From positions 1 to 38,049 of IMG/VR virus record IMGVR_UViG_2802429217_000005: a DNA stretch of 38,049 nucleotides; one strand, written 5' to 3'. The position numbers were made by a program, and so were the translations under genes. Of the stretch, positions 3,842 to 38,049 are shown piece by piece. The notes under the pieces are model-generated. The model ran no database searches. It was given only the letters and a program-made list of their open reading frames with translations, and was not told the origin of the DNA. This DNA comes from a virus. Lineage: Duplodnaviria > Heunggongvirae > Uroviricota > Caudoviricetes. Every line of letters begins with the position of its first letter. Within the stretch, counting starts at the first letter, position 1.

Positions 3842-3856
3842 CGCTGACTCTCCGGA

Positions 3857-4597: not shown

Positions 4598-4604
4598 ATC
4601 GTCC

Positions 4605-5575: not shown

Positions 5576-5586
5576 ACATCCCCCTT

Positions 5587-5940: not shown

Positions 5941-6307
5941 AAACAGCCATTCCACCATCAACGTGTGTTTTTGCATCTGAGGACATAATCAGAATCACCC
6001 GACCAACATCCGCAAGCTCAACGGATTCCCCCGTTTCACCATCAACGCCACAGAGATGGAGGCAGGTCAGAACTCTGATGCGCGTTAACGCGCCGGATGT
6101 TTCCTCACGAACATCATGAGCCGCGGTTTCCCGCTCCCGGATATCCATATTCATAACCTGTACATCATCGCCGGATGACTGCATTTCCTCTTCCCATTCT
6201 GCCACCCGCTGCGCTATCTCTGCGGCACTCCCGGATATATCCGGCTCACGCCCCAGAATCAGGGCCAGTTCATCAAGCCGTTTCAGATTTTGCTCTTTCG
6301 TTGCCAT
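5933..6307 (-). CDS. FI: head completion / DNA packaging protein FI-like
   Basis: Position between E and FII; acidic protein starting MATKEQNLKRLDELALILGREPDISGS at the ATG at 6307; only weakly resembles lambda FI from memory. Confidence 0.65.
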   Translation of the reverse strand: MATKEQNLKRLDELALILGREPDISGSAAEIAQRVAEWEEEMQSSGDDVQVMNMDIRERETAAHDVREETSGALTRIRVLTCLHLCGVDGETGESVELADVGRVILIMSSDAKTHVDGGMAVYA

Positions 6308-6358
6308 ATCAGCCCCCTGTGAAAAAAGACACGGGGGCATTTCGCCCCCGCTCACGGA

Positions 6359-7387: not shown

Positions 7388-7444
7388 AAATCAGTTCCTT
7401 TCATTCAGAAATCAGTCAGGCCACCGCGGTGGCCTGATAACGTG

Positions 7445-7792
7445 TTACGGCAGCGCCGCGTGACTCAGGGCACTGCCAGCAAAGGCGTTGGCCTTTTTGT
7501 GTTCATCCACACTTTCAGGCCAGTGGATTGCCTCCGTCGCAAAGGTTCCCGACTTGTAATACGTCAGCGCCGTCTCTGTGCCGTCAAGCGGCAGTACCAG
7601 TATGCCAACCGCACTACCGGCTTTCTGTCCGTCCCAGACCACCAGTTTCCCGGTGGCTTCATCCAGCATCAGGGGCGTCAGTGCCGGTGTTGGCGAGGAA
7701 ATCCCGCTGCTGCCTGTGGCGGTATGAGCCGGATCATTACCGGCAAAAATACGTACTTCCGCACGCTGTTCAGTGATGGTTTTCGTCACCAT
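7445..7792 (-). CDS. D: capsid decoration protein D
   Basis: 115-aa ORF with lambda gpD motifs (NDPAHTAT, TPLMLD, WDG, AVGIL, YKSGTF, AFAG), diverged. Confidence 0.85.
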   Translation of the reverse strand: MVTKTITEQRAEVRIFAGNDPAHTATGSSGISSPTPALTPLMLDEATGKLVVWDGQKAGSAVGILVLPLDGTETALTYYKSGTFATEAIHWPESVDEHKKANAFAGSALSHAALP

Positions 7793-7828
7793 ATTGTAAA
7801 AACCTCCTGTTGATGGTCAGCACTGGCT

Positions 7829-9334
7829 TCATGGCATGGCCATGAGCATTTTCACGTCCGCATCACCATCTGCTGACGTCTGTGGCACGCCACCCTGTAC
7901 CGCTGCCGGTGAATGGTTCGCCATGAAATGTTCAAACATGGCGGTTGTGGATGCAGAGACCGGTTCTGCCTTACCTGATCCCGCAGCCAGCACAGCCCGG
8001 GCGCTCTCCACAGTCATTCCCGGGCAGGCAGCCAGCTGTTCAGCCTGCACCTCAGCCCCTTTTGCCTCATCCAGTGCCATGATCTGATCACGGAGTGATG
8101 GTCCGGCATCCGCCTGCGGTGAAGCAGCCAGGATCGGGCGGGCTTTTTCCACCGTCATCTCCGGCATCGCCGCCAGTGTTGCCGCCAGTTGTTCACGACC
8201 GTTCGCTTCTTCACACGCCATAATGCGATCGGCTTCACTCTGCGTGGATGCCACCGGCTGCTGCGGTGCCGCCGCGGCCAGAATCGCCCGGGCCTGTTCA
8301 ACGCTCATGCCCTGTTGTCCTGCCAGCATCGTGGCAAGCTGTTCACGTCCTTTCGCTTCCTGGCATGTCAGGATCCCCATCACTCGCTGGTTCTCCTGCG
8401 CGGCGGCTTCCGTTGCAGTTAATTGCGGCATAGTGCCTCCTCTGACATTACTGTTCAGCGCCGTGGCCATCACACTGATGGCATCCGACGCATTGATTAA
8501 TTCATCCGCCAGCCCGGCCTCAATGCCGGACTGACCTTCAAAAACGGCGGCCTCTGTTCCCGTGACTGCATCAACAGACAGACCGGTAAACATCGCCACT
8601 TTTTCGGCAAACATCCGGCGCGCCGCATCAATCCGCTGCTGCATGTCCTGGCGAACCTCTGCCGGCAACGCTTCAAACTGATTGCCATCCACCTTGTGCG
8701 CCCCTGAGTAAATCAGCGTGATATCCACACCGGCCTGCGCCAGATGACCGGCATAGCTGACATGGCTCATCATCACGCCAATGGAACCGATACGGGATGT
8801 CTGGGTAACCAGCCGTCGGGAGCAGGCCGACGCCAGCAGCATGGCTGCAGAACAGGCCGTGTCATTGCACAGTGCCCAGACCGGCTTCTGCTGACGGAGG
8901 CGGTAAATCATGTCAGCGCAGTCAAACGCGCCGGCGGCCTGCCCACCCGGACTGTCAATGTCCAGCAGTACGCCCCGCACCTGGCTATCCGCCATTGCCT
9001 GCTGAAGACAGGCGACAATACCGTCATAGCCTGTCATTCCGGAAAATGGCCGCATACCACCCAGCCGGTGCACCAGCGTGCCGGTCACCGGCAGTACAGC
9101 AATACCGTTCACCACCCTGTAAACACGGGCAGGTCGTTTACCTCCGGCCATGTACTCGTCCGTTTCAGCCAGCATTCCGGGAGCATCAAACTGTACCTGC
9201 TGTTGTGGTACCGAAAGACTTGCTGCCCCCATCTCGCGCCCGAGCGCGCAAAAGAAAACCCGCGCATAGGCGGGCTCCAGAAGCAGCGGTTCATTGAATG
9301 CTGCGGCAATAATGTGTGAAAGATTACGTCTCAC
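7829..9334 (-). CDS. C: prohead protease/minor capsid protein C with in-frame Nu3-like scaffold region
   Basis: 501-aa ORF; N-terminal S49/ClpP-like peptidase region resembling lambda gpC; C-terminal part has three tandem ~40-aa repeats resembling the Nu3 scaffold region. Confidence 0.88.
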   Translation of the reverse strand: MRRNLSHIIAAAFNEPLLLEPAYARVFFCALGREMGAASLSVPQQQVQFDAPGMLAETDEYMAGGKRPARVYRVVNGIAVLPVTGTLVHRLGGMRPFSGMTGYDGIVACLQQAMADSQVRGVLLDIDSPGGQAAGAFDCADMIYRLRQQKPVWALCNDTACSAAMLLASACSRRLVTQTSRIGSIGVMMSHVSYAGHLAQAGVDITLIYSGAHKVDGNQFEALPAEVRQDMQQRIDAARRMFAEKVAMFTGLSVDAVTGTEAAVFEGQSGIEAGLADELINASDAISVMATALNSNVRGGTMPQLTATEAAAQENQRVMGILTCQEAKGREQLATMLAGQQGMSVEQARAILAAAAPQQPVASTQSEADRIMACEEANGREQLAATLAAMPEMTVEKARPILAASPQADAGPSLRDQIMALDEAKGAEVQAEQLAACPGMTVESARAVLAAGSGKAEPVSASTTAMFEHFMANHSPAAVQGGVPQTSADGDADVKMLMAMP

Positions 9335-10916
9335 GTGGTGTTGTCTCCTCTTCCGGCCTGCGACTCTCCGCTATCTGCTGCTGATACGCCTGCGCTATCC
9401 ACACCGGACGTGAGAGTCCGGCTTTTTGCCGCTCAGCAGATTCCCTGACCTGCTGGCGGAAAATGTCCTGATAATCCTCGCCCATCAGCGCCAGCTCTTT
9501 CTCATACGTGCTCAGTCCGGCCTCAATGCGCATCACTGATTCCTGGACTTCCTTGAGCCCGTCAATGGCCATTCTTCCGGCACCAATCCACTCTGCCCGT
9601 GACCAGGCTGATCGCGCCTGATAAAAATCAAAACGTGCCCGTGGCGGACGAATAATCCCCCGAAGAAGTGCCTCTTCCAGCCAGCAGGAAAACATCTGCG
9701 TGGCCAGCCGGGCCGCAATAAATTTTCGCCGCCCCATAAAATAGCGCCACGACTCATTGGCGGAGGCGCGGGCACTTGAGTAACTGACCTTCGAGTAATC
9801 ACGGGACAACTGTTCGTAGGAAACGCCAAGACCGGCGGCGATATACCGCAGCAGCGCCTGTTCAAGCGCAGAAAATCCATTGTCTGAATCCTGCGCAGTC
9901 TGTAGTTTCAGATCATCACCAGGGAAAAGGTGCGGAATTTTGACACCGCCCAGTGTCACGTTATTCGTGTCATACCAGCTGGAGAACTTCTCCAGAATAT
10001 TAATAAGCGGATTATCCTTCTGCTCCTGTGGCGCGCCGGCGATATATTCAAAGGCCTTTTCGGTATCAAGTTCACTTTCAATCGTCGCTGCATACATCGC
10101 CTTCACTATGGCCGACTGAAGCTGTGTTGCCTGCAGGGAATCGAGCATCTTCAGCCGTTCCATGACGCTGTAAAACTGATTAGCCCCACGGGTCTGCCCG
10201 TCCTCCACCGGCTCGAAAATATGCAGCATGGCCGGACGCCCGGTGGGAAGTTCACGCGGGATCCGTTCCCATCGTCCACTACCAGAGAACGGAAAATCAT
10301 CCTCACAGATATGGTACGCGACGGCACGGCCATATCGATCGACCTCCACACCGGCCCGCAGAAAACGGTTCCCCATACCGTGTCCAGGCGTGTCCACCCG
10401 TTTCGGACTCACGGCTTTAAAACGCGTACGGAATAACTGCGTGGTTTCCGTATCCCAGACCGGCTGCACAAAGATTTCGCCGTTAAACGCATGAACGCCC
10501 ACACCTTCACGGATAAATTCCGTGAACGTGCGTTTTCCTTCCACGTCGATCTCGCCAAACATCCCTTCGGCGTATTCCGACCAGGCCGCCTCCACCTCAT
10601 CGACAAAGCTTTTTGCTGCGGTCTCCCGCATCCCCAGCCAGCGCCAGTTCGGACGGTAGCTGATCAGAAACATATGCCCGACAATGTGATCCTTATGCAG
10701 AGCCACCGCATTAGCCGCTATTCCGTTATTGCGCACCAGATCATCTGCCCGGGCATTCCCCAGACGCAACGCGGGCAGCAGGGCCGCATCGGCACTCTGC
10801 GCCGGTGGCAACCACTCAGCCATTTGCCCGCCAAATCCTGCACCGCCCCCGTTGTAGCTGAGACTCTCACGAAGCGGAACGCCGTTCACATCAATCAGGA
10901 CAGGCGTTCGTTTCAT
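9324..10916 (-). CDS. B: portal protein B
   Basis: 530-aa ORF between W and C, length and position of lambda gpB (533 aa). Confidence 0.9.
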   Translation of the reverse strand: MKRTPVLIDVNGVPLRESLSYNGGGAGFGGQMAEWLPPAQSADAALLPALRLGNARADDLVRNNGIAANAVALHKDHIVGHMFLISYRPNWRWLGMRETAAKSFVDEVEAAWSEYAEGMFGEIDVEGKRTFTEFIREGVGVHAFNGEIFVQPVWDTETTQLFRTRFKAVSPKRVDTPGHGMGNRFLRAGVEVDRYGRAVAYHICEDDFPFSGSGRWERIPRELPTGRPAMLHIFEPVEDGQTRGANQFYSVMERLKMLDSLQATQLQSAIVKAMYAATIESELDTEKAFEYIAGAPQEQKDNPLINILEKFSSWYDTNNVTLGGVKIPHLFPGDDLKLQTAQDSDNGFSALEQALLRYIAAGLGVSYEQLSRDYSKVSYSSARASANESWRYFMGRRKFIAARLATQMFSCWLEEALLRGIIRPPRARFDFYQARSAWSRAEWIGAGRMAIDGLKEVQESVMRIEAGLSTYEKELALMGEDYQDIFRQQVRESAERQKAGLSRPVWIAQAYQQQIAESRRPEEETTPRET

Positions 10917-11119
10917 AACCTCACTCCCAGCGGACGACGGCGACGCCGGGTTGTCCCCAGTACCGACTCCGCATCATTGATCGCCCGGTTAAGCTCATCC
11001 AGAGAAGCCGCCGTATATTCAATTCTGCGACCATCTTTCTGGACAGACACCACCCGTTTACCGGTTAATAAATCAAGGCGCGCCTGACGCAGCGCCTGCA
11101 GTTCAGCGACTGTAACCAT
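10913..11119 (-). CDS. W: head-tail joining protein W
   Basis: 68-aa [38 protein letters not shown]... matching lambda gpW in length and sequence. Confidence 0.9.
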   Translation of the reverse strand: MVTVAELQALRQARLDLLTGKRVVSVQKDGRRIEYTAASLDELNRAINDAESVLGTTRRRRRPLGVRL

Positions 11120-13031
11120 TCACTCCTCCGGACAGCTTCGCTGCCAGTTCTTTAAGGGTTGGCCGGGTCGTCTCTTCTTCCCGGGATTTTGCCAGTACAG
11201 CCAGATCAAGCTGCCAGCGTTGCACGGACACACGTAATGCCGCGTAGGCATACACCAGGCAGTCCAGCGCTTCGTTACGCCGCTTTTTGTTATCCCACAG
11301 CAGACGCATCTTTCCTTTTTCCCACTTCTCCACAAGCTCTTCCGCGACCAGTTGCTGCGCCTCTGTCTGCGAAAAAATCTCCGGATCATCAGGAAAACGG
11401 ATGGCATACGACGTGGCTTCATCCACAGGCGTGGGATCGGCTTTCATACGGGCATAGAGAATTTCTTTTGCGGTGTCCGTCCCCACTTCACACAGATACA
11501 CGCCCCGCTGATTGCGGGTTTTTGGCATGGTGATCACCGGCTTGCCATAGACAGATGCGCCTTTTATCGGCAGCACCCGGAAAACACCGTGTTTTTTTGA
11601 CCTCTGATAAACGATTTCGCCATCGATCCCCCCGATGTCCCAGCAGACACGAGAAATAGTCATTTCGGTTCCGTCTGCATGGCGGTATTTTTTGTTGATC
11701 GCCGCATCCACACGTAACAGCGTCTCTTCCTCATCGGGACGCCCCATAATGATGATTTTATCCACCAGAAAGGCTTCCTCTCCCGGAGCCCATCCCCAGA
11801 CATACATCTCAAAACGGTTTCGCTGCGAGTCAATGCCCGCCGTCAGATAAACCACCCGGGCAGGCACCGCCGCCGTGTAACGCACAACCTTATCCATCAG
11901 TACCTGGTGATCGAGTTTTTCGCCCACGGCCTCTTCCCAGGTCTCGCCCAGCGTGGTGTTCACAAAGGTTTTCAGGCCGTTGGGATCTTTCAGTGCATCC
12001 AGCCAGTCATAGACAATCTGTACCCATGTGGTGAACGGACTGTACGCCGTCCAGATATGGAAAGTGATGGAGCGCGGCGGCGGAATTTCATCACCCCGGG
12101 CGCTGAAAAACATCAGGCCGTCACGGGTCCACATGCCCGTGTTTTCACAGATCCACCGCCCGTTACTCTGGTCAAGCTCAGACTGATGGATCACACAGCC
12201 ATGATGCTCACAAAGGTAGAAAACACTCTCTGGCTTATTCTTCTCCCACTTAAGACCGAAAGGCGAGGCATCATCGCCAAATTTCAGATACTGCTCCTCC
12301 CCACAGTGCGGACAGGGCACATAAAAACGCATGAAGTGTGCCGACTCGTTAGCGGCTTTTTCGATCTGGCAGGAGCCTTTGATTTTAGGCGTCGAGCCGC
12401 GAATGGATTTTGGCCATACAGAGCCCTCAATACGTTTATCCCCCAGCAGGGTTGGCGAACCCTCTTTTTCAACATCCGGTTCGAACGAGGAAAGCTCGTC
12501 ATAACAGACCACATCCACGGATTTTTCACGGTAGTTTTTTGCTGCCGCACCACCCAGACACCAGAACCCCACACCGGAGGAAAAACGCTTCAGGGTGAGC
12601 GTATTATCGCGGTGTTTTCTTCCGAACCATGGAGCCAGCTCCAGCAATGCAGGAACATCCCTTATCGTTGGCTCAACATGAGATTTCATAAAATCTTCAG
12701 CAGCTGAGTCCGTGGGCTGAAAAAGAAGGCTGTTGCGTGATTTATGCTCAATAAAATAAGCCTCCACTCCCAGCAACATCTTTGTATAACCAACACGGGC
12801 AGATTTAATCAGGTTAACCGTGCGAATCAGATCGTTGCCCATACAGTTCATGATGCCAACCTGAAACGGCAGTGTTTCCCACCGCCCCGGGGTATAAGAC
12901 GACTCTTTAGGAAGGTAATAATGTTTATTGGCCCACTGAACTGTCGTCAGTGGAACAGGAATAATGAGAGATAAAAGCCCTGTAGCTATCGCACCGGCTG
13001 CATTAGCTGCCTTCTGCGCGTCTGAAATCAT
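11103..13031 (-). CDS. A: terminase large subunit A
   Basis: Long blocks identical or near-identical to lambda gpA ([63 protein letters not shown]); start placed at the ATG at 13031, giving a lambda-like ~29-nt overlap with Nu1. The N-terminal ~45 aa differ from lambda. Confidence 0.93.
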
Positions 13032-19105: not shown

Positions 19106-20191
19106 TTAGCTCCTGTTCTTATCTAATTGTGCATTTCGCAATTTATCGTTCAGCACCAATATTTCACCAACTGTTTGTTCAAAACGCCCGGACTCAAGTT
19201 CAACCCCAATCGTGCGACGCCCCAATCCCATTGCTGCTTTTATTGTTGCCCCCGATCCCATAAAAAAATCCGCAACCACATCCCCCGGACGACTGCTGGC
19301 AGAAATTATCTGACGCAACATATCCGCCGGTTTTTCGCAGGGATGCTTACCCGGATAATACTGTACGGGCTTATGCGTCCAGACATCCGTATAAGGAACG
19401 GCGGCCGATACAGAAAAATAACGCCGCAGAGATTTGTATTCCTCAAGCAGACTGGCATATTGCCGGTTCAGTTCACTGTATGTGCTGACCAGCAGTTGGT
19501 GTGGCGTTGCCAGCTCCCCACGCTGGTGTTTTTCTTCTGCAACACGCGCGAACAGCGCCTGCAGTTTTCTGTAATCAGCTTCGTTCGGTAACTGCCACTG
19601 ACTGGTACCAAACCAGTGCGACACCATGTTTTTCTTTCCGGTGGCTTCCGCTATCTGTTTGGACGTTATTCCCAGTGATTCACGCGCATCACGAAAGTAA
19701 AAAATCAGCGGGGCCATGACGTGTTGTTTAAGCTCGCGCTCCTTTGCCGCATAGCCGGCATTTTTTGGCTGATATGGCCCCTGATAATGTTCGGCAAACA
19801 GAATGCGCTCTGTTGCCGGGAAATACGCCCGCAGGCTTTCTTTGTTGCACCCGTTCCAGCGTCCGGACGGCTTCGCCCAGATAATGTGGTTCAGCACATT
19901 AAAGCGCTCACGCATCATGATTTCGATATCAGATGCCAGGCGATGACCACAAAACAGGTAAAGACTTCCGGCAGGCTTCAGTACCCGCCAGAACTGAGCC
20001 AGACACTGGTCCAGCCATTTCAGGTAATCATCGTCTCCCTTCCACTGGTTATCCCAGCCCTCGGGCTTCACTTTAAAATATGGCGGGTCTGTGACTATAA
20101 GATCGACAGAGTTTTCCGATAAGGTCTGGATAAATTCCAGGCAATCGGTGTTGATTAACTCACAACTGGATATTTTTACAGTATCAACCAT
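19106..20191 (-). CDS. orphan DNA methyltransferase (N6-adenine/N4-cytosine class, DPPY motif)
   Basis: 361-aa ORF with motif IV DPPY near the N-terminus (LIVTDPPYF) and the AdoMet-binding motif near the C-terminus (DFFMGSGAT); no adjacent restriction endonuclease gene recognised. Confidence 0.85.
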   Translation of the reverse strand: MVDTVKISSCELINTDCLEFIQTLSENSVDLIVTDPPYFKVKPEGWDNQWKGDDDYLKWLDQCLAQFWRVLKPAGSLYLFCGHRLASDIEIMMRERFNVLNHIIWAKPSGRWNGCNKESLRAYFPATERILFAEHYQGPYQPKNAGYAAKERELKQHVMAPLIFYFRDARESLGITSKQIAEATGKKNMVSHWFGTSQWQLPNEADYRKLQALFARVAEEKHQRGELATPHQLLVSTYSELNRQYASLLEEYKSLRRYFSVSAAVPYTDVWTHKPVQYYPGKHPCEKPADMLRQIISASSRPGDVVADFFMGSGATIKAAMGLGRRTIGVELESGRFEQTVGEILVLNDKLRNAQLDKNRS

Positions 20192-21680: not shown

Positions 21681-22346
21681 CTATGAAAATGCCGCCTTTT
21701 GTTTTGAACGTGTTCTCTCCACTAACAATAAAGCTTCACTATCCAGCCGATGAAAAATGTGTTTCATTGCAACCCAGTGACCAGTAAATGTCTTGGACCA
21801 GTTTTTGGTTGTTACTCCCACCAGTAACGCCAGTTCCTGGTATTCATAACCTTCCCCACCAAAAAGCTCAGCTTTTACCGCCTGCGCCGCCAACCAGATC
21901 AACGTCTTCAGGCGCACCAGAGTTTTTCCTGCAATTTTTCTGGTACCGGATTGAGCATTAAATTCAGTCCACGCCCACTGCGTTATCGCGATCTTATACT
22001 CCCAGCAAATGCTACCGCTGTAACACCACAGCACCCACGCCTTCTGATGCTCTTCAAGAGACAGAACGGCGCGTCGCCATGATGATGTCGAAAACTCAAC
22101 CGGACTGACCAGGGCAATTGATGAACCTTTCGCCAGCGATTGCTTTCCCGGGATCGGTGGATTATCCAGCGTTACTATTTTTCCAGTGACCTTATCGCGG
22201 TACCGGATTTTTTTACGTCTGTAACGCCCTGTATTGAACATGGCATTCTCCTGCCAGGCTTCAAGCTGACCTTTTGTTGCTCCACTCAAATCAGCGGTGG
22301 CGATCGTGAGCTGCTCACGCACAAACTGTAAATACTGGTTATTCAT
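21681..22346 (-). CDS. putative late antiterminator Q (non-lambda Q family)
   Basis: 221 aa from the ATG at 22346, which overlaps the rusA stop; position directly after RusA and before a promoter-terminator pair matches Q; family identity is from recall only. Confidence 0.5.
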   Translation of the reverse strand: MNNQYLQFVREQLTIATADLSGATKGQLEAWQENAMFNTGRYRRKKIRYRDKVTGKIVTLDNPPIPGKQSLAKGSSIALVSPVEFSTSSWRRAVLSLEEHQKAWVLWCYSGSICWEYKIAITQWAWTEFNAQSGTRKIAGKTLVRLKTLIWLAAQAVKAELFGGEGYEYQELALLVGVTTKNWSKTFTGHWVAMKHIFHRLDSEALLLVERTRSKQKAAFS

Positions 22347-22702
22347 GCGCACTCCAGTTCTGTGATTTTTATCCCCAGCCGACCACCGGGAATAACCTGA
22401 CCGCGCATAATATTAACTTCATCAAACTGCTCATCGTCGATAAGCAGTCCCGCATGTGTCAGTGCATCCAGTGGTGCTTTCAGAATATTGTCCAGGTCAC
22501 GACGGCGCTTATCCGGCGGCTCTGCAATAATTTTTATTGCCAGCCTTCCGGACAGATTTAATTTCAGTCGCTGCTGGCGAACAATAAGCGCCACATCCCG
22601 GCGATAACGCTCCCCTGCTTTTGATACAAAATATGTGCTGCCACGACGACGCCAGTAGGTATTCACCGTCGGAGGGTAAGGCAAAACAAATTCTATCCCC
22701 AT
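22343..22702 (-). CDS. rusA: Holliday junction resolvase RusA
   Basis: 119-aa ORF with the RusA signature (LPYPPTVNTYWRRRG ... PDKRRRDLDNILKAPLDALTHAGLLIDDEQ); AGAGG Shine-Dalgarno. Confidence 0.9.
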   Translation of the reverse strand: MGIEFVLPYPPTVNTYWRRRGSTYFVSKAGERYRRDVALIVRQQRLKLNLSGRLAIKIIAEPPDKRRRDLDNILKAPLDALTHAGLLIDDEQFDEVNIMRGQVIPGGRLGIKITELECA

Positions 22703-24943: not shown

Positions 24944-25168
24944 ATGCATATGCCCACACTTATCGGAAAAGTGCTTCGTCGATACACAAGTGCTGTAGCA
25001 ACCCATGTTGACACCCATCTTGAGCAAACGACAAAATATCGTCTTACAGTTGATGCGAACGGTAATGCCACCCTGAACATAGAAAACCCAGAAGTTCAAG
25101 CAGACATCATCAAGAAAATGAAACAATTGCGAAAACTACATAACCGTACAGACAAGGAAGTTGCTTAA
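24944..25168 (+). CDS. small basic protein of unknown function (first gene of the repeat-bounded operon)
   Basis: 74-aa ORF (likely start at the ATG at 24950, GGAGAG 6 nt upstream); its TAA overlaps the ATG of the next gene (TAATG); candidate -35 TTGTCT / -10 TAATAA upstream. Confidence 0.5.
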   Translation: MHMPTLIGKVLRRYTSAVATHVDTHLEQTTKYRLTVDANGNATLNIENPEVQADIIKKMKQLRKLHNRTDKEVA

Positions 25169-25959
25169 TGGGTCCATTGATTATAACTGTGATTCTCGTG
25201 TGTGGTTTTTGGTACACCGAGAATCACTATCAATCGAGAATTCATCACGCAAGAACAAATGGGTGGTCATCCTATTTCTACGTTGCAATGCATGGGTGTC
25301 GTTTTGTTGCTCAAGGATTTCTTTTGACGCTCGGGATCTACATGCTTTTCTGGCTACTGAACTCTATCCCACACATAATCAATATTTTCCGAGACAAACC
25401 TATAGAATGGCATTTTTTTAATTGGTTACTTGAAACCAAAGTGATGGAATTACCACTTTTTGCTGTCATCACCATCATTTTCGCTTGTTGTATTGCTTAC
25501 TCTGAGGGGGTGGATGCGCGAAAAGAAATGGAGAATGAAGAAGCGCGCCAAAAGGCTTACAGGGAGATGGCATCAAAAGATTCACTAGAAAACCTATTGA
25601 TCCAAGCCATTGACACAGAGATGCTGATTTTTGTAACACTAAAATCCAGAAAAGTATATATCGGGTATGTGTCAGCACCACGTGTTGAATTCCACAACAG
25701 TGCGCATCTTGAGATCATACCATTCATTAGTGGTTACAGAGATAAGGACTCACTACGCTACATAGAACAACACCGATACTATGATCTCTATCTATCCAAA
25801 GAAATCACATTTGAGTCCGAACCATTAAATTTACAACATTTTCGACACGTCATTCCTATCGAACAAATTGAAGCGATCTCGCTCTTTGATGAAAGCACGT
25901 ACAGCGATTTTGAAAGATTTTCCGAGCCAATGCCTGACACAAAGCAATTACCAGTATAG
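25168..25959 (+). CDS. membrane protein with three N-terminal TM helices and a ~150-aa C-terminal domain, unknown function
   Basis: 263-aa ORF, translationally coupled to the upstream gene; AAGGAAG Shine-Dalgarno; visibly AT-rich; no family recognised. Confidence 0.6.
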   Translation: MGPLIITVILVCGFWYTENHYQSRIHHARTNGWSSYFYVAMHGCRFVAQGFLLTLGIYMLFWLLNSIPHIINIFRDKPIEWHFFNWLLETKVMELPLFAVITIIFACCIAYSEGVDARKEMENEEARQKAYREMASKDSLENLLIQAIDTEMLIFVTLKSRKVYIGYVSAPRVEFHNSAHLEIIPFISGYRDKDSLRYIEQHRYYDLYLSKEITFESEPLNLQHFRHVIPIEQIEAISLFDESTYSDFERFSEPMPDTKQLPV

Positions 25960-25961
25960 TA

Positions 25962-25976
25962 TTACCCTCCCCTCTA
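25962..25976. repeat. right copy of the 15-bp direct repeat TTACCCTCCCCTCTA
   Basis: Exact match to 24842-24856, 3 nt after the stop of the 263-aa gene. Confidence 0.8.
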
Positions 25977-26282
25977 ACGATATACTAAAAAGCCGCTACA
26001 ACTGGACTGCCCCCATAAAGTTGGACAGTTCATGTTAAGCGGCTTTCAGGGCTTGACCCAACAGAAGTTAGATTGTAAGTATCCCGCTTAAACGGACCAT
26101 CTGGTCTTTGTTCCACGGTGACGTGCTCATACCTCCTGAAATGTGGGAGATTTGAGTATGGTTGTCCCTTATGAGCGAAATTTGCACGAAGCGGATAAGT
26201 TACCGGAGCTGAAGGTCCGCTGTGAGCGAAGAGCGGACCTGAGATTGTGGTATGCTAATTTATGGGGATCAGGTCAATTGTA

Positions 26283-26975
26283 TTAGTTATCTTTTTGCTT
26301 TTCTTTATCCCATTTCTTTGCAGTGGTCTGATACCACTCTTCACGCACTCGTTGTTCCTCGGCTCTGTCACTTGAATTATAGTTGTCCGTTTTAATTTTT
26401 TTGCTTCCATGGGAAATCGGCCTCCAGTCTTCTCTAATCTTTTTCACCTGCTCGGCTATCTGTGTCATTGGACTCCTTGCACCTAAGTAGCTAACCCCCT
26501 CGAAAGAAGCCATATCATAAGAATACTCATTCCGCTCTCTTTCAGTTGAGCCCGGCTGTTTAGACCAACTAATACTAACAGAATAAACTTGATCTTTAAT
26601 CTGTTCATACTTACAAAGACTGCTGTTGAGCGAATGGCCGTTTTTTAATACGCTAACCTTGCTAAATGGTATACCTATATTTTTTCTATGTTCAGCATTT
26701 ACCAGTGGGGGATTAAATCCGATTTCAATATCATAGGCTGGGGCATTTCCGGTATTAGCAATATTGATATCAAAATAAAAAGCAGCCCAAGAATTTGGTT
26801 CAAGAGTCACAACGACGTGAGGTTGAACTGATGCGTCAACCATCCTTTTTGTCTCGTCTGCTAATAGCCTTGTTACTCTCCACAAGAAAAATGTAGCAAC
26901 TGCTGTTAGCAATGCTGCCAAAGCGGAGATAAGTGTGCTTACAGTGTTTATATGCTCTGCGATAAATTCGATCAT
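26283..26975 (-). CDS. N-terminally TM-anchored protein of unknown function
   Basis: 230-aa ORF with one hydrophobic segment (residues ~10-32) and a Lys/Glu-rich C-terminus; AAGGA Shine-Dalgarno; convergent with the repeat-bounded operon. Confidence 0.55.
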   Translation of the reverse strand: MIEFIAEHINTVSTLISALAALLTAVATFFLWRVTRLLADETKRMVDASVQPHVVVTLEPNSWAAFYFDINIANTGNAPAYDIEIGFNPPLVNAEHRKNIGIPFSKVSVLKNGHSLNSSLCKYEQIKDQVYSVSISWSKQPGSTERERNEYSYDMASFEGVSYLGARSPMTQIAEQVKKIREDWRPISHGSKKIKTDNYNSSDRAEEQRVREEWYQTTAKKWDKEKQKDN

Positions 26976-30467: not shown

Positions 30468-30893
30468 TTAGTGCATCACCACAGCATTTCCTGCCGGGCC
30501 ACCACGATTCATCTGATTGAAACCGGCGATTGCCACTGCGACAAAATCATCAGCGTCTCTCACCAGTCGTTCCCGCGTCTCCACCAACTCCCGAAAATAG
30601 ACTGAACTGTGGCTGCGCATCCGGGCCACCAGCAGAGGTGGCATTGCTTTTTCGATCGCTGGTAACAACGCCTGAATTTTTTCAACCGCATCAGTGGTGT
30701 CTTTCTCCACCCAGCGGAAAATTTTCTGGGTATTACGAGCCAGGGCTTCTGGATGGCTGTCGTCGTACAGTTCCGGGGACGTCATTCCCAGTTCGAAATA
30801 AGCCCTGGTTATCTTGGCCGCCGGAACTTTTTCACCATCCGGACGCGCCCAGGCATTCATAGCCATGCGGATGTGTTCATGCTTGATTTTCAT
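30468..30893 (-). CDS. YdaT-like protein in the cII position
   Basis: 141-aa ORF starting MKIKHEHI..., directly downstream of the Cro-like gene (ATGA overlap); resembles Rac YdaT as recalled. Confidence 0.45.
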   Translation of the reverse strand: MKIKHEHIRMAMNAWARPDGEKVPAAKITRAYFELGMTSPELYDDSHPEALARNTQKIFRWVEKDTTDAVEKIQALLPAIEKAMPPLLVARMRSHSSVYFRELVETRERLVRDADDFVAVAIAGFNQMNRGGPAGNAVVMH

Positions 30894-31117
30894 GAATCAT
30901 TCTTTCCTTCGTTCAAGGTGTTATCCTTCTTTTTGTAAAGTTCTGGGTTCAAAGATAATTTTCCCTTGGAGTATGCGGCAGCTTCCGCGGCCCTCCCCTT
31001 GGGAACTATTTCACCAGGACGTTTGCGCCACATGTATATAGCTTCACGGGTTATCCCATAAAAATCGGCAACTCTCTGAACAGAGCCAAAAAACTGGACA
31101 AGTTCATCAACTCGCAT
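30890..31117 (-). CDS. Cro/DicC-like small HTH regulator
   Basis: 75-aa ORF MRVDELVQFFGSVQRVADFYGITREAIYMWRKRPGEIVPKGRAAEAAAY... resembling DicC/YdaS-type Cro analogues; AGGAGGG Shine-Dalgarno; divergent from the repressor gene. Confidence 0.6.
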   Translation of the reverse strand: MRVDELVQFFGSVQRVADFYGITREAIYMWRKRPGEIVPKGRAAEAAAYSKGKLSLNPELYKKKDNTLNEGKNDS

Positions 31118-31209: not shown

Positions 31210-31860
31210 ATGATGATGGAAAGCCTTGGCATTAGGCTTAAGAGACTCAGAAAAGACAAGGGACTGACCCAAGTCGAACTGGGCAAGCTTTCTGGCGTAA
31301 CAGGGGTAACTATAGGGTACTGGGAGAAAGACCTAAACGAACCCGGTAGCAAAGCTCTTAGTAAATTAGCCCAAGCACTAGGAACTACTGAGTCCTATCT
31401 CCTATATGGAGTATCGTCTACTGAACCTACCCTTGTGCAGAACAATTCAGGCACCCAAATCCCCTATCTTTCATGGGGGGAAGCAATTTCTTTCCTAATT
31501 TTAGAAGGAGAGAAAACTATGGGAAATGCCGACAGAATCACCACATTCTTTGACGTCAAGGAGGGGGATTTTGCCGTTTCAATGCCTGATGACACTATGC
31601 ACAACCCATCAGGGTCGCCAAGCATTCCGGTTGGTGCCACAGTGATCATGAGGCCTAGAGAAAAATATAAAAATGGTAGTATCGTCGCTGTAATAGTCCC
31701 AGATCCGCTTACAAACGAACCATCTATGACTATAAAAAAATTAGTCATCGACGGAAAACTCGTGTATTTAAGCCCCCTCAATCCTCGCTATCAATCGTCC
31801 TTACTGACACCTGAATGTAAAATTGTTGCTGTAGCAAAAGGTGTGCAGTTCAGCCTATAG
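31210..31860 (+). CDS. CI-like prophage repressor (HTH-XRE N-terminus, S24 LexA-type peptidase C-terminus)
   Basis: 216-aa ORF; N-terminal LKRLRKDKGLTQVELGKLSGVTGVTIGYWE HTH; C-terminal FAVSMPDDTM ... IVAVIV ... MTIKKLV consistent with an S24 Ser/Lys autoprotease; GGGAGA Shine-Dalgarno. Confidence 0.85.
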   Translation: MMMESLGIRLKRLRKDKGLTQVELGKLSGVTGVTIGYWEKDLNEPGSKALSKLAQALGTTESYLLYGVSSTEPTLVQNNSGTQIPYLSWGEAISFLILEGEKTMGNADRITTFFDVKEGDFAVSMPDDTMHNPSGSPSIPVGATVIMRPREKYKNGSIVAVIVPDPLTNEPSMTIKKLVIDGKLVYLSPLNPRYQSSLLTPECKIVAVAKGVQFSL

Positions 31861-32512: not shown

Positions 32513-33046
32513 TCACTCAATCTCACCGCTATAGGCATTCCATCTGAGCATGAGTGCACGCCAGAAAATATCGTTTATGTGCAAAACACAGTATGGATTT
32601 TCGTCGGGAAGGAGTTGCCCTTCCATGGGGAGCAAAATATTAGCAGATACCAGTTTTTTTATATCAGAATTATTGCGTACAGCATGGATCACAGGATAGT
32701 TCCTCGATAATGCCGTAATAAGAATTTTTTTCTGACCCGCAGTCAAGGAATCGATAACTGCATTGATATGACTGATTATTTTTTGTTCTCTTGTATTGTT
32801 CCGGTGACTTCGCCAGATCTTACGAAGAAATAAAGCTAAACGTTGGAGATTTATAGCCAGCACAAAAGAAAAGGCAAAAACGAATACCGGGTAAATATAA
32901 GGAATGCTGATTTTGTCTTGAACATACTCCGGTACAGAATCAGGCATAAAGAGCAATATCAAAACAAAGATAATAAGCATATACATAAGGCGCTCTAAGG
33001 GTTCGTTACTGAATAACTTGCTCAACAAGCCGAATACATCAGGCAT
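32513..33046 (-). CDS. membrane protein of unknown function, encoded antisense within the ydfAB-dicF operon
   Basis: 177-aa ORF with two N-terminal hydrophobic segments and a soluble C-terminal domain; visibly AT-rich; opposite strand to the flanking early-left genes. Confidence 0.5.
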   Translation of the reverse strand: MPDVFGLLSKLFSNEPLERLMYMLIIFVLILLFMPDSVPEYVQDKISIPYIYPVFVFAFSFVLAINLQRLALFLRKIWRSHRNNTREQKIISHINAVIDSLTAGQKKILITALSRNYPVIHAVRNNSDIKKLVSANILLPMEGQLLPDENPYCVLHINDIFWRALMLRWNAYSGEIE

Positions 33047-33357: not shown

Positions 33358-33415
33358 TTTTCTGGTGACGTTTGGCGGTATCAGTTTTACTCCGTGACTG
33401 CTCTGCCGCCCTTTT
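33358..33415 (+). ncRNA. dicF: DicF small RNA
   Basis: TTTCTGGTGACGTTTGGCGGTATCAGTTTTACTCCGTGACTGCTCTGCCGCCC followed by TTTTT matches the recalled 53-nt DicF sequence and its terminator. Confidence 0.8.
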
Positions 33416-33590
33416 TAAAGTGAATTTTGTGATGTGGTGAATGCGGCTGAGCGCACGCGGAACAGTTAAAACCAAAAACAGTGAAATGGGTGGATTCTCT
33501 GTATCCGGCGTTAATTGTTAACTGGTTAACGTCACCTGGAGGCACCAGGCACCGCATCAACAAAGTTCATTTGTAAAAATGGAGATAATT

Positions 33591-33812
33591 ATGATTGCTC
33601 ATCACTTCGGAACTGATGAGATTCCTCGTCAGTGCGTGACTCCCGGTGATTATGTTATTCATAAAGGAAGAACATATATTGCTTCGGTAAACAACATTAA
33701 AAAACAACGGCTCTATATTCGTGATTTTTCCACACAACACTGTATTAAGGAAACCATGATTAAAGTCTTCCTTGGTCGTGATGGTTTACCTGTAAAAGCA
33801 GAGTCATGGTGA
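33591..33812 (+). CDS. hypothetical protein in the position DicB occupies in Qin
   Basis: 73 aa from the ATG at 33591 (GGAG 6 nt upstream); does not resemble DicB as I recall it; function unknown. Confidence 0.4.
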
Positions 33813-33935: not shown

Positions 33936-36410
33936 ATGAGTAAAGTCTTTATTTGCGCCGCCATTCCTGACGAACAGGCAATTACGGAAGAAGGTGCAGT
34001 TGCTGTAGCCACTGCCATCGAAGCTGGTGACGAACGCCGCGCCCGTGCCAAATTTACCTGGCAATTCCTGGAGCAATATCCGGCTGCTCAGGACTGTGCT
34101 TATAAATTTCTTGTCTGCGAGGATAAACCCGGCATGGCCCGCCCTGCCCTTGGTTCCTGGGATACCGAATATATGCAGGAAAACCGCTGGGATGAGGGAT
34201 CGTCTTCCTTTGTCCCGGTCGAACCAGAGCCGAATACAGAAATTGTTAACTTTAATCAGTTATCCGACGACAAACAGGCCGCTGTTCTCGTTAAGTTTGG
34301 CGCACATGAAAACGTCACCGTGGATATGGTCATCAACGCAAGCGGGCTTCTTGGCGATGACGACATGATGACCTTTGACGGACACCTCGCAGAGGCAATT
34401 ATCCGGACTAAAGAAATTAACGCCATGTATCCGGAACGTCAGATTGAATACATCAACGATGCCAGACGTGATTTAAAACCAACCGCCAAATGGCCCGACG
34501 TTCAGGCATATTTTCTCGACCGTAAAAAACGCCAGGAAAAGGAGCGCAAAGAAGGTGGTGCATATACTTCTGTTGTTGATCTCGCCCGCGCCAGCGTCAA
34601 CCGGCAGAACACTGAAAACTCAGTAGCAAAAATCAACCCTGTCACTACTGCCATTCGTCGCGAATACAAGCAGACATGGAAAACACTGGATGATGAACTG
34701 GCCTACGCTCTGTGGCCTGGTGACATTGATGCCGGAAACATTGACGGCAGCATCCATCGCTGGGCAAAAAATGAAGTTATCGACAACGACCGCGAAGACT
34801 GGAAGCGTATCTCGGCATCAATGCGCAAACAACCTGATGCCCTTCGCTACGACCGCCAGACTATTTTTGGCCTTGTCCGTGAACGTCCGATCGACATTCA
34901 CAAAGACCCTGTGGCACTGAACAAATACATTACTGAATACCTGACTACAAAGGGCGTGTTTGAAGATGAAGGAAGAAATCAGAGCGCAACTGATACTCTC
35001 TCGTCGCCAGTACCAGAAACTGATGCAGTGGAAACGGCAATTCCGGACAACGAAAAAACCGAATGCAAAGTGGAAGTCGAACCATCTGTAGAGCGTGAGG
35101 GGCCGTTCTACTTCCTCTTCACCGACAAGGATGGCGAAAAATACGGTCGCGCAAACAAACTTTCTGGTCTGGATAAGGCACTGGCTGCCGGGGCTACTGA
35201 AATCACGAAAGAAGAATATTTCGCCCGCAAAAACGGTACATACTCAGGTTCACAACAAAATACTGGTGCATCTGATACGACCGCACAACCAGGGCCGGTA
35301 AAAGTTACCGCTGACGAAGTAAACAAAATTATGCAGGCAGCCAATATCAGCCAGCCTGACGCCGATGAACTGCTTGCAGTATCACGCGGTGAATTTGTTG
35401 CAGGGATTAGCGATCCGAATGATCCGAAATGGGTAAAGGGGATTGAAACCCGCGATTCTGTGAACCAGAACCAGCAAGAAACGGAACAGAACGATCAGAA
35501 AGCGGAACAAAACAGCCCAAATACGCAACAAAACGAGCCAGAAACGAAACAACCTGAACCAGTAGTGCAACAGGAACCGAAAAAGATCTGCACCGCCTGC
35601 GGTCAGAGCGGTGGCGGCAACTGCCATGATTGTGGTGCGCTGATGGGCGACGCAACATACCAGGAAACATTCGATGACAAGAACCAGGTTGAAGTTCAGG
35701 AAGACGATTCGGAGAAAATGGAAGGCGCTGAACATCCACACAAGGGGAATGCTGGCAGCGCTCAGGACCACGCCAGCGATAGTGAAACTGGCGAGAGGGC
35801 AGATCCCTTAATTACGGTGAACGGTCATCACGTTATCACATCCACCAGCAGGACGTGTGACCATCTAATGATCGACCTTGAAACCATGGGAAAAAATCCT
35901 GATGCCCCGATCATCTCAATAGGTGCAATATTTTTCGATCCGCAAACCGGAGATATGGGACCGGAATTTAGTAAGACTATCGATCTGGAAACTGCTGGCG
36001 GAGTCATTGATCGGGACACCATTAAATGGTGGCTTAAGCAATCACGCGAAGCGCAATCTGCCATTATGACCGATGAAATCCCGTTAGATGATGCACTGTT
36101 ACAATTGCGGGAATTTATCGACGAAAACTCCGGTGAATTTTTTGTTCAGGTTTGGGGAAATGGAGCCAACTTCGACAACACGATTTTGCGCCGTTCATAC
36201 GAACGGCAGGGGATCCCCTGCCCGTGGCGTTACTACAACGATCGCGATGTACGCACAATCGTTGAGCTGGGGAAAGCCATAGACTTCGATGCCAGAACGG
36301 CTATTCCATTCGAAGGTGAGCGCCATAATGCACTTGATGACGCCCGTTACCAGGCAAAATACGTTTCAGTTATCTGGCAAAAACTTATCCCGAGTCAGGC
36401 TGATTCTTAA
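33936..36410 (+). CDS. RecE-like exonuclease: large N-terminal region plus C-terminal DEDDh (DnaQ-like) 3'-5' exonuclease domain
   Basis: 824-aa ORF; central block LLAVSRGEFVAGISDPNDPKWVKGIETRD resembles RecE; C-terminus has LMIDLETMG, WGNGANFDNTIL and HNALDDARY (DEDDh-like); Cys cluster CTACGQSGGGNCHDCG. Confidence 0.7.
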   Translation: MSKVFICAAIPDEQAITEEGAVAVATAIEAGDERRARAKFTWQFLEQYPAAQDCAYKFLVCEDKPGMARPALGSWDTEYMQENRWDEGSSSFVPVEPEPNTEIVNFNQLSDDKQAAVLVKFGAHENVTVDMVINASGLLGDDDMMTFDGHLAEAIIRTKEINAMYPERQIEYINDARRDLKPTAKWPDVQAYFLDRKKRQEKERKEGGAYTSVVDLARASVNRQNTENSVAKINPVTTAIRREYKQTWKTLDDELAYALWPGDIDAGNIDGSIHRWAKNEVIDNDREDWKRISASMRKQPDALRYDRQTIFGLVRERPIDIHKDPVALNKYITEYLTTKGVFEDEGRNQSATDTLSSPVPETDAVETAIPDNEKTECKVEVEPSVEREGPFYFLFTDKDGEKYGRANKLSGLDKALAAGATEITKEEYFARKNGTYSGSQQNTGASDTTAQPGPVKVTADEVNKIMQAANISQPDADELLAVSRGEFVAGISDPNDPKWVKGIETRDSVNQNQQETEQNDQKAEQNSPNTQQNEPETKQPEPVVQQEPKKICTACGQSGGGNCHDCGALMGDATYQETFDDKNQVEVQEDDSEKMEGAEHPHKGNAGSAQDHASDSETGERADPLITVNGHHVITSTSRTCDHLMIDLETMGKNPDAPIISIGAIFFDPQTGDMGPEFSKTIDLETAGGVIDRDTIKWWLKQSREAQSAIMTDEIPLDDALLQLREFIDENSGEFFVQVWGNGANFDNTILRRSYERQGIPCPWRYYNDRDVRTIVELGKAIDFDARTAIPFEGERHNALDDARYQAKYVSVIWQKLIPSQADS

Positions 36411-36482: not shown

Positions 36483-36734
36483 ATGAGCGAAGTAATCATG
36501 ATTGTCTCTCCCGGCAAATGGGTATCCGAAGAACAGTTAATTGCGCTGAAAGGAATAAAAAAAGGTACGTTAAAAAAGGCCCGGGAAAAATCGTTTATGG
36601 AAGGAAGGGAATATAAGCATGTCGCTCATGACGGTATGCCATGGGATAACAGTCCATGCTTTTACAACCTGGAAGAAATTGATCGCTGGATTGAGCGCCA
36701 GGCATCAGCGAGACCAAGACGTCATCTTACTTGA
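36483..36734 (+). CDS. xis: excisionase-like protein (DUF1233-type)
   Basis: 83-aa ORF immediately upstream of the integrase gene; pattern recalled as the excisionase-like family; start uncertain. Confidence 0.5.
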   Translation: MSEVIMIVSPGKWVSEEQLIALKGIKKGTLKKAREKSFMEGREYKHVAHDGMPWDNSPCFYNLEEIDRWIERQASARPRRHLT

Positions 36735-36753: not shown

Positions 36754-38049
36754 ATGAGAGAAGTTGAAATGAAATATCCGACAGGCGTGGAAAACCATGG
36801 AGGGAAATTACGTATCTGGTTTGTTTATAAAGGCGTAAGAGTCAGGGAAAATCTGGGGGTTCCTGACACAGCAAAAAACAGGCGCGTTGCAGGTGAACTA
36901 CGCTCCTCTGTTTGTTACGCAATAAAAACTGGTGTTTTCGACTATGCAAAACAGTTTCCCTCCTCACGCAATCTGGAAAAATTTGGTGAGGCCCGACAAG
37001 ATTTAACCATAAAAGAACTGGCTGAAAAATTTCTGGCACTGAAAGAAACTGAAGTCGCCAAAGCATCACTCAACACATACCGTGCCGTCATCAAAAATAT
37101 CCTGAGCATAATCGGTGAAAAAAATCTTGCCTCATCGATTAATAAAGAAAAATTACTGGAGGTTCGTAAAGAGCTACTGACTGGATACCAGATCCCCAAA
37201 AGTAACTATATTGTTACACAACCAGGGAGATCGGCTGTAACTGTAAATAATTACATGACAAATCTTAACGCCGTGTTCCAGTTTGGTGTTGATAACGGTT
37301 ACCTGGCAGATAATCCGTTTAAGGGGATCTCGCCATTAAAGGAATCAAGAACCATTCCTGATCCTCTTTCACGGGAGGAATTTATCCGTCTTATCGACGC
37401 CTGCAGAAATCAGCAGGCCAAAAATTTATGGTGTGTTTCTGTTTATACAGGCATTCGCCCTGGTGAACTGTGTGCGCTTGGGTGGGAGGACATAGATCTG
37501 AAAAATGGAACAATGATGATCAGGAGAAATTTAGCAAAAGATCGTTTTACGGTACCGAAAACACAGGCTGGTACCAATCGGGTAATTCACCTTATCAAGC
37601 CTGCAATCGACGCTCTCAGGAGTCAGATGACACTAACGAGGCTGAGCAAAGAACATATTATTGACGTTCACCTCAGAGAGTTCGGCAGAACAGAAAAACA
37701 AAAATGCACCTTTGTTTTTCAACCTGAAGTGTCAGCGAGAGTAAAAAATTATGGTGACCATTTTACCGTTGACTCAATAAGGCAGATGTGGGACGCAGCG
37801 ATAAAGCGCGCTGGCCTCCGCCACCGCAAATCATATCAGTCGAGACATACTTATGCCTGCTGGTCGTTGACAGCCGGTGCCAACCCGGCATTCATAGCAA
37901 ACCAGATGGGACATGCAGATGCGCAAATGGTGTTTCAGGTATACGGGAAATGGATGTCTGAAAACAATAATGCACAGGTAGCCCTGTTAAATACACAGCT
38001 AAGCGAGTTTGCCCCAACCATGCCCCAAAACGAGGTGGTGAAAAATTAA
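36754..38049 (+). CDS. int: tyrosine recombinase / phage integrase
   Basis: 431-aa ORF (possible true start at the ATG at 36769); C-terminal catalytic region with R...HxxR...Y-type motifs (HLIKPAIDALR, SRHTYACW, YGKWM); stop at the window end. Confidence 0.9.
   Translation: MREVEMKYPTGVENHGGKLRIWFVYKGVRVRENLGVPDTAKNRRVAGELRSSVCYAIKTGVFDYAKQFPSSRNLEKFGEARQDLTIKELAEKFLALKETEVAKASLNTYRAVIKNILSIIGEKNLASSINKEKLLEVRKELLTGYQIPKSNYIVTQPGRSAVTVNNYMTNLNAVFQFGVDNGYLADNPFKGISPLKESRTIPDPLSREEFIRLIDACRNQQAKNLWCVSVYTGIRPGELCALGWEDIDLKNGTMMIRRNLAKDRFTVPKTQAGTNRVIHLIKPAIDALRSQMTLTRLSKEHIIDVHLREFGRTEKQKCTFVFQPEVSARVKNYGDHFTVDSIRQMWDAAIKRAGLRHRKSYQSRHTYACWSLTAGANPAFIANQMGHADAQMVFQVYGKWMSENNNAQVALLNTQLSEFAPTMPQNEVVKN

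Follow-up and report, generated by a model that had tools for sequence, protein, structure and literature searches.

The window analysed here (IMG/VR record IMGVR_UViG_2802429217_000005, positions 1 to 38,049) is the left part of a lambdoid, Qin-type prophage, running from tail and head genes to int, and it raises the question of what kind of enzyme is made by the large gene at 33936-36410, which lies immediately before xis and int. An earlier note, made from the letters of the DNA, had described the product as a RecE-like protein that carries a DEDDh 3'-5' exonuclease domain and has no RecT partner, and that description was borne out in each of its parts. The protein is an intact mosaic in which the whole non-catalytic body of RecE is followed by a DEDDh domain in place of the PD-(D/E)XK nuclease, the replacement lying within about 14 residues of the domain boundary. 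Judging from domain family, its polarity is almost certainly opposite to that of exodeoxyribonuclease VIII. The function that we favour, with confidence that is about evenly balanced, is that of a 3'-5' exonuclease of DNA ends, tethered by its scaffold, that would belong to the phage module for recombination and DNA metabolism and work without an annealase of its own.

The open reading frame (ORF) begins with ATG, has GAGG about 11 nt upstream and is uninterrupted over 824 codons. Its parts are listed below in order, with the evidence used to delimit them in brackets; aa denotes amino acid positions in the product.

33936..36410, + strand: the whole gene, encoding the 824-aa RecE-like/DEDDh exonuclease (ORF call; PHROG 2082 over the full length)
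33936..34553, + strand: aa 1-206, YdfE_N head, a small alpha/beta subdomain and then a helical part
34677..34955, + strand: aa 248-340, central helical domain (BLASTP; AlphaFold2, predicted local distance difference test (pLDDT) about 90; phmmer)
35103..35231, + strand: aa 390-432, small beta-hairpin/helix module, ER-GPFY...GRANK...EI..EEY.ARK.G (conservation; AlphaFold2 pLDDT about 88)
35385..35432, + strand: aa 484-499, the motif RGEFVAGISDPNDPKW, common to RecE and many scaffold relatives (alignments)
35448..35585, + strand: aa 505-550, low-complexity linker rich in Q, E, N and P, predicted to be disordered (composition windows; pLDDT < 50)
35589..35633, + strand: aa 552-566, C4 zinc-knuckle-like cluster CTACGQSGGGNCHDC (conserved in RecE)
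35634..35855, + strand: aa 567-640, acidic linker holding the domain-swap junction (similarity to RecE stops at aa 627)
35856..36407, + strand: aa 641-824, DEDDh 3'-5' exonuclease domain, DexA/Rv2179c-like (Pfam, PDB match, conservation)

For the AlphaFold2 (AF2) run on this protein, a 21-row alignment was made up of E. coli variants and of distant relatives represented by their N-terminal halves. Modules at aa 1-206, 248-340 and 390-432 were modelled with confidence, and disorder was predicted at aa 207-243, 345-385 and most of 439-640. The protein database assigns the product to the Pfam families PF27430 (YdfE_N), PF27432 (YdfE_C) and PF16473. The idea that two genes, or a frameshift artefact, lie behind the composite architecture was rejected, since the ORF is uninterrupted and is conserved at full length.

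The resemblance to RecE proved wider than the central region in which it had been noticed. BLASTP against RecE of K-12 (NC_000913) pairs aa 263-627 with RecE 278-592 (37% identity, E 9e-58), and over the last ~150 residues of the alignment the two are, by eye, roughly 70-75% identical. The central helical domain (aa 248-340) is common to RecE (about 278-370) and to all scaffold relatives, across heads and tails (phmmer), and the shared central region includes the GISDPNDPKW motif as well as the cysteine cluster, whose spacing (C552-x2-C555-x7-C563-x2-C566, i.e., CxxC-x7-CxxC) recurs in the RecE equivalent CNACGQTGGDNCPDCG. The Gln/Glu-rich linker of the earlier note was also recovered. The first ~95 aa of the YdfE-type and RecE-type heads are related by remote homology (hhalign probability 94.5%, E 8e-8), and therefore the protein is RecE-like along its whole non-catalytic length. 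The two proteins are of similar length (824 against 866 aa). They differ in the Pfam type of the head, which in RecE is Exonuc_VIII (PF06630) and here YdfE_N, and in the small beta module at aa 390-432, which is strongly conserved in YdfE-type and annealase-tailed relatives (invariant columns at and around it are E386, R387, G389, P390, F391, Y392, G404, R405, N407 and K408) and is a gap in K-12 RecE. Above all they differ in the nuclease, a PD-(D/E)XK domain of 5'-3' polarity in RecE and a DEDDh domain, predicted to be 3'-5', in the window protein. The RecE nuclease domain (606-866) gave no BLASTP alignment to it, neither PF12684 (at E <= 0.1) nor PF06630 was found in it by Pfam (PF12684 does match RecE-type scaffold relatives), and a PDB search with it returned no match to RecE. 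The NCBIfam equivalog for exonuclease VIII, NF007259, is matched at model positions 264-603 of 877 by aa 241-627, with 268.5 bits against a cut-off of 1269. At the DNA level, nucleotides 1450-1828 of the gene, which cover the zinc-cluster/GISDPNDPKW segment, are 83% identical to a Rac recE (H25, Rac-SA53), and one relative, P0128 (805 aa), is a hybrid with a K-12-like RecE head and a DEDDh tail. From these two observations it is plausible that the shared segment has served as a recombination joint between prophages.

The C-terminus had been said to carry DnaQ-like motifs rather than the nuclease of K-12 RecE, and the domain search agreed: PF16473 (Rv2179c-like 3'-5' exonuclease) covers aa 643-814 along model positions 2-177 of 177 (E 2.9e-67; 226.2 bits against a cut-off of 27), an RNase_T match stays below the Pfam threshold, and no PD-(D/E)XK domain was found there. 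The catalytic residues are D647, E649, D747, H797 and D802, the last two in an H-x4-D arrangement. Among the query and the 120 closest clusters at 90% identity, E649, D747 and H797 are present in all 121 sequences, D802 in 120 and D647 in 119, and of the cluster cysteines C552, C555 and C566 are found in all 121 and C563 in 118. The catalytic residues are also conserved across genera (alignment A4), with a single exception, P0267. This protein of 752 aa, with a RecE_N head and a DEDDh tail, has Lys at the position of E649 and Ala at that of D747, and its tail may be a catalytically dead variant.

The only PDB entries found by sequence (phmmer) were 8kel and 8ken, 227 aa long and named 'Exodeoxyribonuclease' (E 1e-6); the structure of Rv2179c was not recovered at E <= 0.01. 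D647, E649 and D747 align with D7, E9 and D119 of these entries, which were identified as T4 DexA because their numbering agrees with PMC12153337 and the domain family matches annotated T4-like dexA loci. The phmmer alignment ends at DexA residue 162, short of D169. The family model is matched end to end by the C-terminal 184 aa with all DEDDh residues kept, and D119, H186 and D191 of DexA have their equivalents in the window protein. D90 of DexA corresponds to D719, which is invariant in alignment A4, and W152 to Y767, a position that is variable in close relatives (Cys in 57, Tyr in 55, His in 6 and Ser in 3). DexA and most of its homologues are standalone proteins of about 180-230 aa, whereas here the domain forms the tail of a 640-aa scaffold. 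In PMC12153337, T4 DexA is described as a 3'-5' DNA exonuclease with roles in DNA scavenging and recombination-dependent intron homing. Its W152 is needed for recognition of 5-hydroxymethylcytosine (5hmC) (PMC12153337). A standalone E. coli homologue, EcD ('HREX'), cut the T4 genome and DNA with 5hmC but did not cleave double-stranded DNA that was unmodified, and it protected E. coli from T4; in it the tetramer-forming Asp (D90 of DexA) is replaced by Ala, A78 (PMC12153337). EcD and the window protein belong to the same DEDDh family and are both encoded in E. coli, but the termini of EcD given by its cloning primers (MIDTET... and ...TIPETYD) mark it as a different protein, and it is standalone and lacks the D90 equivalent that the window protein keeps as D719. 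No ORF with the termini of EcD was found among 76 loci with a DEDDh domain (one genome per species). The window protein can be said to resemble in part RecE, in its slot and scaffold, and in part DexA, in its predicted chemistry.

The same scaffold turned up with other tails. When 1.84 billion representatives of 50% clusters were searched exhaustively by phmmer with aa 1-640, only 231 clusters were found at E <= 0.001; domains were mapped on 59 long members, and Pfam was run on ten of these. The relatives have two head types, YdfE_N and RecE_N (PF06630), and one common central domain. DEDDh tails occur in the representatives P0121, P0123, P0128, P0138, P0143, P0240 and P0267, and the other tails include the RecE-type PD-(D/E)XK domain, a longer PDDEXK domain (PF12684), a type exemplified by P0140 (16 representatives) and one exemplified by P0126 (10 representatives). 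The P0140 type is widespread (Salmonella, Enterobacter, Klebsiella, Citrobacter, Kosakonia, Pantoea, Erwinia and Serratia), and its members are named 'exodeoxyribonuclease VIII' in databases. Together with the P0280 type, it shares the YdfE_N head, central domain and beta module of the window protein, at ~36-46% identity over the N-terminal 440 aa, and in a Salmonella prophage it occupies the same slot, between kil and xis-int. Pfam found no nuclease in P0140, and its tail matched no annealase by Pfam, by phmmer against the PDB or with a 14-sequence profile against the PDB; its PHROG label is 'exonuclease'. However, the tail carries the motif KKSLTDAxKKALSxLGF, which we take to resemble the Rad52 signature. 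The AF2 model of P0140, built from 52 sequences, has a mean pLDDT of 77.7, and Foldseek missed a Rad52 match to it. The tails of the P0140/P0280 type appear to carry a Rad52-like fold and no nuclease domain. The scaffold thus appears to be an adaptor that the phage recombination module can reuse, since its relatives carry on it a nuclease of the RecE type, a DEDDh nuclease or an annealase domain of Rad52 fold.

Two of the remaining tails can be described briefly. In P0126, P0135, P0236, P0241, P0246, P0250, P0254, P0261 and P0265 the tail is about 200 aa long, belongs to phrog_26058, has no Pfam family, and in the P0126 type ends in a conserved motif like QQLTIAALQGLCANPA. P0192 (703 aa) joins RecE (aa 1 to about 530, up to the zinc cluster) in frame to RecT (Pfam RecT, 1e-42) and has lost the nuclease domain.

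The absence of an annealase gene before xis and int, as the earlier note had it, was confirmed at the level of sequence for the whole window. Among the ORFs of the early region, Pfam and PHROG gave replication, exclusion, Kil and unknown-function families and no single-strand annealing protein. The whole window was searched by tblastn with K-12 RecT, the Exo, Bet and Gam proteins of lambda, the nuclease domain of RecE and the Rad52-like tail as queries, and no match had an E value below 0.38. All 342 stop-to-stop ORFs of 50 aa or longer were then scanned by phmmer and hmmsearch (--max) for RecT, Red-beta, Gam, the Exo of lambda, the nuclease domain of RecE and a Rad52-like profile; even in so small a database every E value stayed above 0.05. 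Tests of this kind could miss a very divergent annealase among the ORFs of unknown function at 25168-25959 and 26283-26975; a hidden annealase in either of these was considered and found no support from Pfam, PHROG, phmmer or hmmsearch. A RecT gene just beyond the window was also looked for. In the closest genome, E. coli MS 119-7, which is 99.7% identical over the gene and carries the same prophage at the Qin site, the host gene rspB directly follows int, and so no RecT or other phage gene lies just outside the window. The inspected parts of the complete phages Tritos and mEp460_ev081 and of the partial record 640R1, in all of which the gene stands directly before xis-int, have no annotated annealase. 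In none of the 76 species loci was a RecT-, Red-beta- or Rad52-tail-like ORF found within 8 kb (phmmer, 1e-4), and where fused forms occur in Pluralibacter, Kosakonia and an Enterobacteriaceae isolate, the genes are again arranged as cI, small ORFs, exonuclease, xis and int. Since the annealase is missing in viable phages and in other genera, its absence is a conserved property of the context rather than a peculiarity of this window. When compared with a two-component recombinase of the lambda Red or RecET type, the window, like Tritos and mEp460_ev081, has the nuclease half alone, and with the opposite predicted polarity.

The position of the gene is that of a recombination module. Its neighbours are as follows.

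30890-31117, - strand: cro, divergent from cI
31210..31860, + strand: cI-like (LexA-family) repressor of 216 aa, at the head of the early-left region
32513-33046, - strand: SieB-like superinfection-exclusion gene (Pfam SieB, 6e-15; phrog_6399)
33360..33411, + strand: DicF small RNA (Rfam RF00039, 76.7 bits, full length)
33579..33812, + strand: kil, FtsZ inhibitor, directly upstream of the exonuclease gene (phrog_294, E 2.6e-34; 'kil' by the Prokaryotic Genome Annotation Pipeline (PGAP) in the nearest relative)
36483..36734, + strand: excisionase gene xis, directly downstream of the exonuclease gene (ORF; PGAP in the 99.7%-identical relative)
36754..38049, + strand: tyrosine integrase gene int, whose stop codon is the end of the window (ORF; nearest relative)

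The order kil-exo-xis-int can be set beside kilR-racC-recE-recT-...-xisR-intR in Rac and kil-gam-bet-exo-...-xis-int in lambda. The gene is the last before xis-int in a PL-like early-left operon of the dicBF type, at the position of exo-bet-gam in lambda and of recE-recT in Rac. RecE of K-12 has the same slot, downstream of kil and upstream of xis/int, but there recT overlaps the end of recE, whereas in the window xis directly follows the exonuclease gene. The genes ydfA, B, C, D and E of K-12 are likewise part of the dicBF operon, whose promoter dicBp is PL-like, is repressed by DicA and fires spontaneously in ~1% of cells (bioRxiv 10.1101/2023.04.14.536235). A simple scan found no promoter-like site between kil and the gene, the region having fewer such sites than its shuffled versions, and a scan for promoters and terminators near the gene gave nothing above chance. 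Given its membership of a dicBF-type operon and the lack of a promoter-like site, the gene is most likely early-left and repressor-controlled.

Several other features of the region are recorded here. ORFs like DUF1391/ydfA and ydfB lie between cI and the SieB-like gene, the latter being on the opposite strand within the early-left operon. There is no intact dicB ORF between DicF and kil, so that this prophage pairs DicF with a Rac-type Kil and not with DicB/YdfD. A RusA resolvase is annotated in the nin region of the nearest relative, and the 119-aa ORF at 22343-22702 (-) is its likely counterpart in the window. The two ORFs mentioned above, 25168-25959 (+, 263 aa) and 26283-26975 (-, 230 aa), have only PHROG matches of unknown function (phrog_3630 and phrog_11802); in the nearest relative hokD and a zeta-toxin gene take the place of the 25168-26975 ORFs, which marks a variable moron region. 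A type II DNA methyltransferase is encoded at 19106-20191 (-; PADLOC MTase_II, 3.5e-152), and in the nearest relative no endonuclease gene is annotated adjoining it. The G+C content steps from 54-61% in the head and tail genes (1-12000) to 39-50% in the lysis, regulatory and early regions (13000-38049), which is consistent with a mosaic origin.

The gene family is already catalogued and very common, and the sequence itself is not new. By megablast at a coverage of at least 80%, the gene was found in 3481 of 5426 complete E. coli genomes (~64%), with a median of two places per genome among those that have it, and the 120 near-identical E. coli proteins of the first homologue search added no diversity. 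It is present at full length in 17 phage records, and records labelled as Stx2a-converting phages carry it. RefSeq names the product 'exonuclease' or '3'-5' exonuclease', and in many records '3'-5' exoribonuclease', whereas Tritos, PhiR42_1 and 640R1 name it 'exodeoxyribonuclease VIII'. In UTI89 the gene is annotated as exoO, adjoining dicB/dicF (PMC6206680), and that name is also seen in EDL933-style annotations. The window gene is the intact counterpart of K-12 ydfE (b1577), a pseudogene of Qin that is cut by IS2 after ~257 codons, is 68% identical over aa 1-257, and is the source of the Pfam names YdfE_N and YdfE_C; the locus is orthologous, being downstream of the dicB operon genes, upstream of int and next to rspB, but in the window the gene has its full length. 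A Shigella copy is fragmented. No functional study of the window protein was found in the literature searched, and the library searched held no report of a polarity-swapped RecE architecture, of the consistent lack of an annealase, or of a scaffold shared with Rad52-fold proteins.

How, then, might such a protein act? It would be made once induction or infection lifts the repression of the operon, and would act as a Mg2+-dependent 3'-5' exonuclease, expected on DNA 3' ends, with the long and flexible RecE-type scaffold holding the nuclease at its site of action. It could trim linear DNA of phage or host at its 3' ends, tails or flaps, and might also contribute to nucleotide salvage; these are the two roles reported for T4 DexA. 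The pairing of strands would fall to host RecA or to the annealases of co-resident prophages, and junctions could be resolved by the phage's own RusA. A number of points weigh against this proposal. Substrate (DNA or RNA), polarity and role are all read from family membership, and the namesake of the Pfam family, Rv2179c, is an exoribonuclease. The AF2 model of the DEDDh domain is poor (pLDDT 30-50), because the alignment is shallow over that domain, and the active site could not be inspected in it. A weak point of the proposal itself is that a 3'-5' exonuclease would remove the 3' tails used by RecA and annealases, so that its place in a recombination pathway is not obvious. The domain is, moreover, not specifically tied to annealase modules, since its standalone homologues, the commonest DEDDh form in the Enterobacterales species scanned, likewise have no RecT, Red-beta or Rad52-like genes as neighbours. 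Most of these are about 182-199 aa long (MNHLMIDLETMG...) and 50-59% identical to the tail (loci L017-L084), and one was compared with T4-like dexA loci (~33% identity over 75% of the length, BLAST-level). Finally, the standalone E. coli homologue of DexA was reported as an anti-T4 defence (PMC12153337). As a separate observation, in one Klebsiella phage a DEDDh gene stands last among the genes listed for an early-left operon, which also contains DUF2303, ParB-like and DUF550 genes.

One rival reading is defence or superinfection exclusion, in which the tail would degrade incoming DNA (e.g., hydroxymethylated T-even DNA) and protect the lysogen or the induced cell. The kinship of the domain with EcD, the presence of exclusion and host-takeover functions around the gene (sieB, kil and DicF) and the spontaneous firing of dicBp all speak for such a role, but we consider it unlikely: a gene in a repressor-controlled early-left operon is off in most lysogens and no separate promoter stands out, the protein is not EcD, the position of DexA W152 is a variable Y767, the Asp lost in EcD is kept, and the PADLOC match of the window protein is a generic CRISPR-associated DEDDh hit alone (E 2e-5). 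It also leaves the RecE scaffold unexplained. DEDDh enzymes include oligonucleotide-degrading nucleases, and the protein could instead act in counter-defence or anti-restriction, removing host defence nucleic acids with free 3' ends (retron multicopy single-stranded DNA (msDNA) or linear oligonucleotide signals) or otherwise protecting phage DNA. Early-operon timing would suit this, and RecE of Rac degrades retron msDNA, which has been discussed as an anti-restriction function (bioRxiv 10.1101/2020.06.22.160242). However, a cyclic signal offers no 3' end, a host system to match was not identified, and the annealase-fold domain on the same scaffold in relatives is not accounted for, so that we think this rather improbable.

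Less can be said for an enzyme acting on RNA. The family name and the many RefSeq records that bear it, together with the heavy processing of the operon RNA to release DicF (bioRxiv 10.1101/2023.04.14.536235), would agree with a 3'-5' exoribonuclease on phage or host transcripts or small RNAs, but the RNase name is propagated from that of the family, the sole PDB sequence matches are the entries named 'Exodeoxyribonuclease', and outside its tail the protein has the scaffold of a nuclease of DNA recombination; the chance of this is small. That the gene is a decaying or functionless remnant of RecE, left by an accidental domain replacement, might be argued from the IS2-truncated ydfE, which is all that K-12 has, from the fragmented Shigella copy and from the two catalytic substitutions of P0267, but is very improbable: the 824-codon ORF is intact and widespread at full length, plaque-forming phages carry it, and the architecture is kept across several genera with catalytic and cysteine residues so nearly invariant that this is not a decaying gene. 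A true exonuclease VIII of the 5'-3' RecE kind with a RecT nearby, as the RecE-like central region and the labels of Tritos, PhiR42_1 and 640R1 would have it, has next to no chance of being correct. It was refuted by the missing PD-(D/E)XK domain, the equivalog score of 268 bits against 1269 and the failure to find RecT in the window. The scaffold-tethered 3'-5' DNA-end exonuclease therefore remains the reading that we prefer.

The findings bear first on annotation, the label 'exodeoxyribonuclease VIII' being attached to several phage records and many database entries, including those of the annealase-tailed cousins. About two thirds of complete E. coli genomes hold an intact and conserved large exonuclease at the position of the recombination module. 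The long N-terminal part of RecE enhances linear-linear recombination. With the same scaffold selected with four different tails, the role of this part of RecE becomes testable. The fusion proteins with a Rad52 fold may provide new annealases for recombineering in Enterobacterales. As a tentative and rather doubtful extension, it could be speculated that the ~600-residue non-catalytic RecE/YdfE body is an autonomous adaptor that brings a 5'-3' nuclease, a 3'-5' nuclease, a Rad52-type annealase or the fourth tail to a common partner or DNA structure, and that the DEDDh version represents an annealase-independent 3'-end pathway. If so, we suggest that this pathway could aid recombination in lambdoid prophages, or serve in counter-defence or defence.

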